Source of the DNA: Escherichia coli
Lineage (GTDB): Bacteria > Pseudomonadota > Gammaproteobacteria > Enterobacterales > Enterobacteriaceae
Direction: 5' to 3' (one strand)
Assembly: GCF_003334405.1 (NCBI RefSeq)
Contig: NZ_QOWM01000002.1
Length of the DNA: 64,000 nucleotides
Position numbers and translations under genes: made by a program
The notes under the pieces: model-generated
Told to the model about the DNA's origin: nothing
Databases searched by the model: none
Seen by the model: the letters and a program-made list of their open reading frames with translations, nothing else
Part shown: positions 59,452 through 61,080 of the stretch, piece by piece
Layout: each line of letters starts with the position of its first letter
How positions within the stretch are numbered: the stretch's first letter is position 1

Positions 59452-59945
59452 AAACGTAAGCGTTAACGGAGTGCCGTATTGACGCTTATTTATTGGTGAG
59501 TACTACGTTCCATGGCAGGAGTTCGTCAACTCGGTTGGAAGGCCATTCCGGCAGTACGCTCAGGATATGGCGCAGATACGCTTCCGGATCGATACCGTTC
59601 AGTCGGCAGGTGCCGATCAGCCCGTACAACAGTGCTCCTCGCTCGCCGCCGTGATCGCTGCCGAAGAACATAAAGTTTTTCTTTCCGAGACAGACTGCAC
59701 GAAGCGCTCTTTCCGCGGCATTATTATCCGCCTCCGCCAGACCATCATCACAGAAGTTGCACAACGCAACCCAGTGCTTCCGGATATACCGGAACGCATC
59801 TCTCAGACGGCATTTTTTCGATAATGTGTGTTCTTTCTCCTGCATCAGCTTATACAGGGAAGTCAGTAGCGGTTTACTCTGCATTTGCCTGACCGCCAGG
59901 CGTTCAGACACCGGCAACCCGCGTATTTCGGTAACCGGCTCATTT
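59452..59945 (-). mobile_element. IS66-family element fragment: transposase C-terminal part plus terminal GTAAGCG-type end
   Basis: Translation ...DNNAAERALR...LLYGLIGTCRLNGIDPEAYLRHILSVLPEW... matches the IS66 TnpC C-terminus. A gtaagcgttaacgg end motif sits at about 59456. Confidence 0.7.
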
Positions 59946-60009
59946 AAACCGTCTGGTGTGTTTCCTCCGGCTCCACAAAAATAATGTCCATCATTTTTAA
60001 TGGACACTA

Positions 60010-60230
60010 TCGTATGGAATACCGGACCTGGATCACTGAAGCTTTACGTCTTCACTTTGAAGAACATTTACCACGGATTGTGGCCGGACGTCGCCTGGGC
60101 GTACCAAAATCAACAGTTTGTGGTATGTTCGTGCGCTTCCGAAAAGCTGGCCTTTCATGGCCTCTGCCCGCAGGTATGTCGGAGCGGGAACTTGATGCCC
60201 GTCTTTACGGGAGTGCCTCCACAGTACCTG
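60010..60230 (+). mobile_element. IS21-family transposase (IstA) N-terminal HTH fragment
   Basis: ...RRLGVPKSTVCGMFVRFRKAGLSWPLPAGMSERELDARLYG resembles the IstA N-terminal HTH and LSWPLP block. No catalytic domain follows. Confidence 0.55.
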
Positions 60231-60307
60231 TCGTACTTACTGAAAACACCGTTATGTCCGAAGTCCCGGTGGTAAAAAAACGCCCCCGGCGGCCTAATGC
60301 CAGTCAG

Positions 60308-60667
60308 TTAAGCAACTGACTGGCTCTTTTTCGGGGCTGTGGGGTATTTCCAGGGCCTCTCCTTTACCACTCTCGGGAAGGCCCTTTCCCTTATTGTCGG
60401 TAATTTCACAAGTTGTCCCATACTTGCAAGATCGCGCATCAGCTCCGGTATATGTCCCGGTGAAGCGCCCTGCAATGTCATCAGCATTCTCATCACCATT
60501 CCGCATGATTCTGAGAAACTCAGTTGATTCGGCCAGTAACCTTTCAGATGTTCCGCCATTTTAATCATCTGATATCTCACCAGATTATAAGCCAGTAAGA
60601 CACCCCACAGCTCTTGCTCCACAAGCTCCGGCTTTTTACTTCTCAGCGTCAGCCTGCTCAGTTGCAT
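60308..60667 (-). mobile_element. IS4-family transposase C-terminal fragment
   Basis: ...ELVEQELWGVLLAYNLVRYQM... is a typical IS4-family C-terminal block. No N-terminal or DDE region is present. Confidence 0.6.
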
Positions 60668-60731
60668 CGTCTGTTTTATCTCCCTGTATCCCAGTTCGAT
60701 TGTAAGCGGCTCGCCAGAACCGTATTGATAT

Positions 60732-60917
60732 TTACTGAGAGGTCAGATCAACTTTCCAGGGCAACAGATCGCGTACCCGGTTTGCCGACCAGTCCTGCAT
60801 ATGATCTGTGACGTAATGCAGCAATTTTTCTGACTCCGCATTGTTCAGACGGCAGGTGCCGATCAGTGAGCACAATATGTGCTGCATATTTGCCGCCGCT
60901 GTCGGAACCTGCAGCAT
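60732..60917 (-). mobile_element. Second IS66-family transposase C-terminal fragment
   Basis: ...LIGTCRLNNAESEKLLHYVTDHMQDWSANRVRDLLPW... parallels the C-terminus of the fragment at 59486-59945. Confidence 0.6.
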
Positions 60918-61080
60918 ATTACAGGTTATTACTCGATCCCGATGGATGATATTGGGGGATTTCTTTCCATGAAAATACGTAAGAGTCGGGAGTAATTTGT
61001 CTTACCATCAATCTTCTTCATCACGCCCAAAGAAAAATAGTCATTCAAAGTACCCCGGGCATTTTGCCCGGGGATTATTA

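Follow-up and report, generated by a model that had tools for sequence, protein, structure and literature searches.

How did a row of broken insertion sequences (IS) come to lie between two defence systems and the integrase of an Escherichia coli genomic island, and does it do anything there? The window analysed here, that is the whole stretch of 64,000 nucleotides, comes from the E. coli chromosome and contains a tRNA-Phe gene at 62541-62616 with yqgA, speC and nupG beyond it, a set of flanking genes that identifies the locus as pheV. A P4-type tyrosine integrase gene lies directly beside this tRNA gene at the yqgA/speC locus, the arrangement of GI-pheV, a mosaic island at pheV in which the P4-type integrase gene intP4 is the only conserved gene (Nhu et al., 2024, PMC11537424). 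The cargo of GI-pheV consists of modules separated by insertion sequences, and the island evolves by insertion, deletion and recombination (PMC11537424). In the window, positions 59456 to 60981, between a type I CBASS operon and the integrase gene, hold a scar of 1526 bp made up of five abutting IS fragments, which we call A to E (Table 1).

Table 1. Positions of the defence genes, IS fragments, island backbone and integrase gene in the window
Feature	Position	Strand	Content or evidence	Length	Outer end	Remaining coding sequence	PGAP annotation
qatC	54846-56165		RefSeq name				
qatD	56162-56887		RefSeq name				
CBASS 2TM/SLATT effector	57440-58015		profile search/PADLOC				
CBASS cyclase	58023-59351		PADLOC Cyclase, E 9e-177				
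Island backbone 5' of CBASS cyclase gene	59352-59455	.	pre-insertion target of fragment A				
Fragment A	59456-59930	-	ISEc43-like IS66 element, right terminal repeat and tnpC 3' end	475 bp	GTAAGCGTTAACGG at 59456	last 148 codons of tnpC, 59486-59929	IS66 family transposase, missing N-terminus
Fragment B	59931-60294	+	ISCro1-like IS66 element, left terminal repeat and tnpA 5' part	364 bp	GTAACCGGCTCATTT at 59931, also read as GTAACCGGCTCATT	first 105 codons of tnpA, 59984-60298	IS66-like accessory protein TnpA, pseudogene
Fragment C	60295-60701	-	IS4 proper (insG), one terminal repeat and transposase 3' part	last 407 bp of IS4	TAATGCCAGTCAGTTAAGC at 60295	last 130 codons of transposase, 60308-60700	IS4 family transposase, pseudogene
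Fragment D	60702-60912	-	second IS66-family element, ISCro1-like, right terminal repeat and tnpC 3' end	211 bp	GTAAGCGGCTCGCC at 60702	about 60 C-terminal codons of tnpC, 60732-60912	transposase domain-containing protein, frameshifted, missing N-terminus
Filler at D/E deletion junction	60913-60924	.		about 12 nt			
Fragment E	60925-60981	-	non-coding terminal (IRL) segment, probable ISEc12-like IS21-family element	about 57 bp (inner limit approximate)	about 60981 (...CATGAAAATACGTA), facing the integrase		
Island backbone 3' of integrase gene	60982-61080	.	hairpin terminator at 61053-61073				
intP4, P4-type tyrosine integrase of island	61081-62343	-	adjoins tRNA-Phe pheV and yqgA			420 codons	

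The scar and its surroundings

We compared the whole 59300-61200 stretch with complete genomes by megablast and found it at 98.7-100% identity in 53 E. coli genomes. The scar itself is 99.6-100% identical in nearly all of these (one is at 98.7%), and they come from many hosts. The flank running from D through E to the integrase gene is present in 61 complete genomes. A feature found this often cannot be an assembly artefact, and DNA matches at an E-value of 0 exclude chance. The RefSeq/PGAP annotation of an identical locus already lists four incomplete pseudogenes; the scar is an ordinary feature of a known kind, annotated as pseudogenes before.

On the integrase side, the backbone up to the 3' end of the integrase gene is 83-87% identical to the DNA that follows the genes of related P4-type integrases at pheV and pheU, and a scan found a terminator-like site in it. 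On the other side lie the two defence systems. RefSeq names the products of the type I CBASS genes (57440-59351) only as 'nucleotide-binding domain-containing protein' and 'SLATT domain-containing protein', and the same cyclase-2TM pair occurs on small plasmids, beside two HEPN-domain genes. A Qat anti-phage system (window about 52300-56887), in which a KAP-family NTPase gene and a hypothetical gene precede qatC and qatD, lies directly beside CBASS. Qat and CBASS travel together in about 258 genomes.

In BS74R-D, an identical genome, the island is about 27 kb long, reaches yghD and contains many further IS remnants. The rest of the island there, corresponding to about 35300-50600 of the window, is equally decayed, with fragments of T6SS genes, a frameshifted IS30, remnants of ISEc60 and IS110, an intact IS1A and fragments of CbtA, DUF5983 and DUF4942 genes. 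At the far edge of the island, pitB is truncated.

Identity of the fragments

Each piece was searched separately against 5,426 complete genomes, and IS names were taken from RefSeq product names. Fragments A to D tile the DNA without a gap; four nucleotides (60295-60298, TAAT) can be assigned to either B or C. Fragment A is 95.6% identical to an intact ISEc43-family copy over a match running from 59455/59456 to 59930, and its frame at 59486-59929 on the minus strand matches the IS66 transposase profile NF033517 (E 1.7e-38), only over profile positions 262-385 of 387. Fragment B has 97% identity to an element carrying tnpA, tnpB and an ISCro1-family tnpC, at the left end of that element; the matches start at 59931, and its plus-strand frame (59984-60298) matches the IS66 TnpA profile NF038385 (E 5.8e-29, positions 1-90 of 190). 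The profile scores of A and B fall under the whole-protein cut-offs because both are partial. Fragment D has 88-90% DNA identity to ISCro1-like tnpC 3' ends, with matches spanning 60702-60909/60912; searched alone, its 61 amino acids had no HMM match.

The terminal inverted repeats of IS66-family elements begin 5'-GTAA. The outer ends of A, B (in the reading GTAACCGGCTCATT) and D all start with GTAA and align with the ends of intact copies, and the three fragments are IS66 sequences by DNA identity and, for A and B, by profile as well. Each keeps one end and part of one gene. Complete members of the family have tnpA, tnpB and tnpC between two ends and an 8-bp target duplication. The complete tnpA-tnpB-tnpC organisation with two ends was found in none of A, B and D, which are remnants and not members of the family capable of transposition. 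The tnpC stretches in A and D correspond to each other but are only 65% identical in an alignment, so the two fragments derive from two separate elements rather than from a duplication. The only notable repeat in the block is a 33-nt segment conserved between these two tnpC remnants.

Fragment C is 99.3% identical to IS4 copies, including the K-12-type insG, over matches that span 60295-60701, and its frame matches the last 28 positions of the IS4 profile NF033592 (E 1e-6). Elements of the IS4 subgroup carry the DDE and Y(2)R(3)E(6)K motifs, have ends of the form '-AATR' and make duplications of 10-13 bp (PMC2266710). The terminus of C, TAATGCC, fits this form (PMC2266710), and, judged by its DNA, we consider its origin from IS4 certain. 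It keeps 130 of 442 codons and lacks the two catalytic Asp residues, and the remainder of the element is cut off by the terminus of D.

Fragment E was found by a sensitive search, in which 60925-60983 had 81-85% identity to one sequence present in 676 plasmids. Its counterpart in plasmid pEND_Eco 12049-1 is the end beside istA of a complete ISEc12; the same end adjoins an IS3-family element in pLAO6 and, in pAPEC-O1-ColBM, is left on its own next to a shortened traQ. Across these three contexts, the flanks are unrelated directly after ...AAAATACG[C/T][A/C], and in the window, homology to the DNA downstream of the integrase gene in other phe-tRNA islands begins at about 60985-60989. The same end in three contexts with unrelated flanks suggests that 60925-60981 is an IS21-family end. 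The match to an F-plasmid tra region without an IS had raised doubt about this identity, which we dropped when the plasmid sequence proved to be a solo end remnant and a third context proved to have different flanks. Fragment E has no coding sequence, its terminal dinucleotide is TA instead of the CA of ISEc12, and its closest relative is only 85% identical.

The plasmid copies of this end differ in their surroundings. The solo ISEc12 end in pAPEC-O1-ColBM is about 60 bp long (fetched locus 3205-3268). In pEND_Eco 12049-1, where the complete ISEc12 occupies the same site, 61 bp of plasmid sequence are directly repeated on its two sides (fetched locus 380-450 and 3059-3120). Such a length is far beyond that of a normal IS21-family target duplication.

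A sequence-only reading of the window had described an insertion-sequence graveyard with four transposase remnants from three families (IS66-like twice, IS21-like and IS4-like) at 59452-60975. Profiles, DNA identity and PGAP agree on four truncated transposase-related frames in this interval, none of them intact, and the limits given were almost exact (59456-60981 as determined here). The two IS66-like pieces and the IS4 piece keep their families. The supposed IS21 frame (59984-60298) does not: its sole NCBIfam match is IS66 TnpA, with no match to IS21 there and none of any kind in Pfam, and its DNA is 97% identical to IS66 tnpA, so an IS21 identity was rejected. As this piece is an IS66 TnpA, the four coding remnants come from two families, IS66 (three) and IS4 (one). 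A fifth, non-coding fragment, E, which that reading had missed, is a probable IS21-family end.

Order of insertion and the D/E deletion

Fragments A to D each keep exactly one intact outer terminus and are cut where the terminus of the next fragment starts. At the A/B, B/C and C/D junctions, the interior of an older element thus meets the intact terminus of a younger one, which starts GTAA... in the IS66-family pieces and TAATG... in IS4. Where the interior of one element meets the intact terminus of another, the second was active after the first was in place, which gives the order A, B, C, D. The D/E junction is of a different kind. It joins two element interiors and is therefore a deletion junction, and the filler nucleotides at it have no convincing alignment to ISCro1 or ISEc12. 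The identities of the fragments, their breakpoints, this relative order and the variants in other genomes described below can all be read directly from the DNA.

The site at which A inserted is preserved elsewhere. Plasmid p30EVA2-3 carries the same cyclase-2TM pair, and its homology to the window ends exactly at 59455 (after '...gacttaaac'). Since it diverges precisely at 59455/59456, this plasmid represents the empty site for fragment A and confirms the location as its insertion target. The backbone/A junction is found in 258 genomes and is older and more widespread.

Taken together, these junctions make it very probable that the scar is inert and was formed by successive IS insertions into one another and then by at least one deletion. 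First, an ISEc43-like IS66 element (A) would have inserted upstream of the CBASS cyclase gene, leaving 104 bp of backbone between them. An ISCro1-like element (B) would then have inserted into tnpC of A, IS4 (C) into tnpA of B, at a sequence that IS4 uses elsewhere too, and a further IS66-family element (D) into IS4. Separately, a site about 100 bp beyond the 3' end of the integrase gene would have been occupied by an ISEc12-like IS21-family element (E). The last step would have been a deletion with one endpoint within D and the other within E, which took out the lost halves of A to D together with most of E and whatever cargo had lain between them, bringing the CBASS/Qat block beside the integrase. 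Because the surviving halves all lie on the same side, one deletion could have removed every missing half, and five insertions and one deletion would be the most economical history. We infer a single deletion rather than several on grounds of parsimony, and the arrival time of E within this history is likewise our inference. The term graveyard is right in substance; a nested stack truncated by deletion is probably the more precise description. Repeated insertion, also part of the sequence-only reading, is well supported by the interior/terminus junctions, and deletion has support as well, but the repeated cycles it envisaged are not required, because one deletion from D to E could account for all the missing halves.

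Interior/terminus junctions can also come from IS-mediated adjacent deletion, which gives the same order by a different event. The same pieces could also have been trimmed stepwise, by several adjacent deletions or recombinations over time. Independent small events are indeed frequent at this locus in relatives (SF-468, 4/2-1, M3, Z217-2, NCTC9038 and E62, described below), and the IS4 copy at the same tnpA site in the pINV plasmid has an internal deletion of its own. Stepwise trimming is nevertheless somewhat doubtful, as it needs more events than a single deletion, the retained halves all lie on one side exactly as a single deletion predicts, and there is no intermediate among the 61 genomes carrying this integrase flank, all of which already have the D/E junction. 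The full nested stack before deletion was found in no genome of the collection.

On the pINV plasmids of enteroinvasive E. coli (EIEC; VL40 and RMDEC332), an ISCro1-like element has its tnpA interrupted by IS4 at the site that corresponds to window 60279-60300, with a 12-bp duplication (CCCCGGCGGCCT) and an offset of 1 nt from the window (fetched pINV locus 5990-7010). In about 1,300 records, the best match, at 80-90% identity, consists of the IS4 end plus some 20 nt of similar flank, in contexts where only IS4 is annotated. From these sequences, the tnpA site looks like a target hot spot for IS4.

Could the stack instead have been built elsewhere, perhaps on a plasmid, and have entered the island as a whole by recombination? 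The pINV plasmids do carry a B-like tnpA with IS4 in it at the same site, and the same integrase occurs with an E-D-C-B stack and unrelated cargo at both pheU and pheV, which indicates that the block travels with the integrase end. However, the tnpA on pINV has diverged from B at many positions (this class of match is 93.8% identical), and the 1-nt offset of its IS4 junction looks like an independent hit at the hot spot. The backbone/A junction is chromosomal in 253 of 267 places, which also argues against an imported stack, and the A/B junction was seen, among the matches listed, only in relatives of this locus. Import is thus improbable, and serial insertion at the locus itself remains our preferred account.

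We also considered whether the pieces might form one intact composite element, an outcome that the sequence-only reading had named as the one that would overturn it. Neither the profile search nor PGAP revealed a fragment with a complete transposase, A and D represent overlapping stretches of tnpC that are 65% identical to each other, B and D are oppositely oriented, and a repeat search around the block found no matching pair of inverted repeats. We found no support for a composite, and the anatomy of the block makes one virtually impossible. Since neither a complete transposase nor two ends that match are left, no part of the scar can move any more. Its remaining effect is passive: it provides homology for further recombination and deletion and a place where new IS copies can land without harm, and relatives show that such events have taken place.

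Variants of the scar in related islands

Comparison with related islands, which the sequence-only reading had suggested as a means of reconstructing the order of events, provided variants with breakpoints in the scar, next to the relative order A, B, C, D from the junctions. In SF-468 and 4/2-1, an IS3-family element interrupts A about 234 bp into the fragment, and about 14 kb of other cargo then lies before a different integrase allele at pheV. In E62 and MSI001, A, B and C are as in the window, and D is identical for about 100 bp before becoming ISEc43-like after a conserved segment, which is the 33-nt repeat shared by the tnpC remnants. Beyond this chimeric D (fetched locus 7434-8462) lie an IS3 fragment, a complete Druantia system (druA-E) and another integrase allele. 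Going by the alignment, the chimera is the mark of homologous recombination between IS66 elements. We rejected the idea that D of E62 is a longer, ancestral fragment, since the alignment shows a chimera and hence a recombinant.

In the mouse strains M1 and M3, fragments E, D, C and B plus 98 bp of A are found at pheU, on the dicD-dsbD side, with unrelated cargo, together with an identical integrase protein (WP_001218783.1; M3 fetched locus 5000-7800) and an intact IS66-family element inserted in A. The same integrase and scar at pheU in these strains and at pheV in the window show that this integrase end has occupied both tRNA-Phe sites. In NCTC9038, there is a break inside B at 60248 and the cargo has been replaced. 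Z217-2 has a deletion from inside B (60020) to a pseudogene of ISEc60/DNA-binding type beside a gentisate-pathway module, which removes CBASS, Qat, the T6SS remnants and IS30 (fetched locus 3729-4280). Intact IS2 and IS3-family elements are inserted in the scar of STEC384 and STEC379.

Among the genomes compared, the scar is evidently a repeatedly used breakpoint and landing site. The sequence-only reading had considered the fragments a likely cause of the island's internal rearrangements. This appears to hold for the relatives with breakpoints in the scar (E62, Z217-2, M1/M3, NCTC9038 and STEC384); the support is for those scar breakpoints and does not extend to the rest of the island in the window.

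Does the scar do anything?

Might the block have been retained for a function, as a promoter or insulator for CBASS, as a regulator made from a truncated transposase, or as a selected recombination adapter for swapping defence cargo? Several observations invite the question. The scar is nearly identical in almost all of the 53 genomes and across their many hosts, no more than 104 bp separate the terminus of A from the cyclase start codon, an open frame of 173 codons (59486-60007) spans the A/B junction, and relatives have exchanged cargo at the scar. High identity is, however, expected from recent common descent or horizontal spread, and the 104 bp in front of the cyclase gene are the same in the plasmid-borne CBASS, which has no IS there. 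From this comparison, the native promoter region of CBASS is probably intact, untouched by the insertions, and no IS is needed. Promoter-like sites are not enriched in the scar (2 found vs 2.2 expected). A search of 58900-62800 against Rfam at a permissive threshold found only the tRNA, and PADLOC found no defence-family match for the chimeric open frames. These frames (59486-60007 and 59984-60319) span junctions and are accidents of fusion. Relatives also tolerate both truncation of the scar and new insertions in it. Our sequence searches thus gave no sign of a function, and we regard retention for one as very improbable.

Perhaps the scar instead acts as a docking strip: homology in its IS66 and IS4 parts would channel recombination, so that modules of defence or other cargo are exchanged next to a P4-type integrase that still works, at pheV as well as at pheU. 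Such homology is shared with many plasmids and islands and, if the idea were right, the scar would be kept by second-order selection. We consider this highly doubtful.

The scar is nonetheless of some practical use. It marks a single integrase allele, which it accompanies in 61 complete genomes and at two tRNA-Phe sites, and it is a useful landmark for tracing the movement or loss of the CBASS and Qat modules in E. coli. In relatives, both defence systems have been lost by a deletion anchored in the scar, or Druantia has been gained beyond a recombined scar. Beyond the correction of the IS families, the exact breakpoints and the order of insertion, the scar matters little.

Comparison with known systems

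The island resembles GI-pheV (PMC11537424) in having its integrase beside pheV and yqgA and cargo modules separated by insertion sequences, and the end consisting of scar plus integrase is common to variants with different cargo. The GI-pheV paper treats insertion sequences as separators of modules, without a dissection of this scar (PMC11537424). The cargo differs: CBASS, Qat and a gentisate-pathway module are present here, whereas GI-pheV carries virulence modules of uropathogenic E. coli. Unlike GI-pheV, the same integrase allele and scar also occur at pheU, in M1 and M3.

Fragments A, B and D have 88-97% DNA identity to ISEc43 or ISCro1 and keep their GTAA... termini. In contrast to these elements, whose three genes alone span about 2.4-2.6 kb, only 475, 364 and 211 bp are left, without tnpB, without a complete tnpC and with a single end per fragment. 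Fragment C is 99.3% identical to the K-12 IS4 (insG) over its last 407 bp, including the terminal repeat, but has only the C-terminal 130 of 442 codons. The segment at 60925-60981 matches the terminal repeat region upstream of istA in ISEc12; it differs from that element in its identity of only 81-85%, its lack of coding sequence and its TA rather than CA end.

A parallel to such a row of fragments is found in the IS-riddled regions of Shigella and EIEC pINV plasmids, which likewise contain runs of truncated IS pseudogenes and an IS66-type tnpA split by IS4. There, both halves of tnpA are kept around IS4, whereas in the scar only one half of each element is left.
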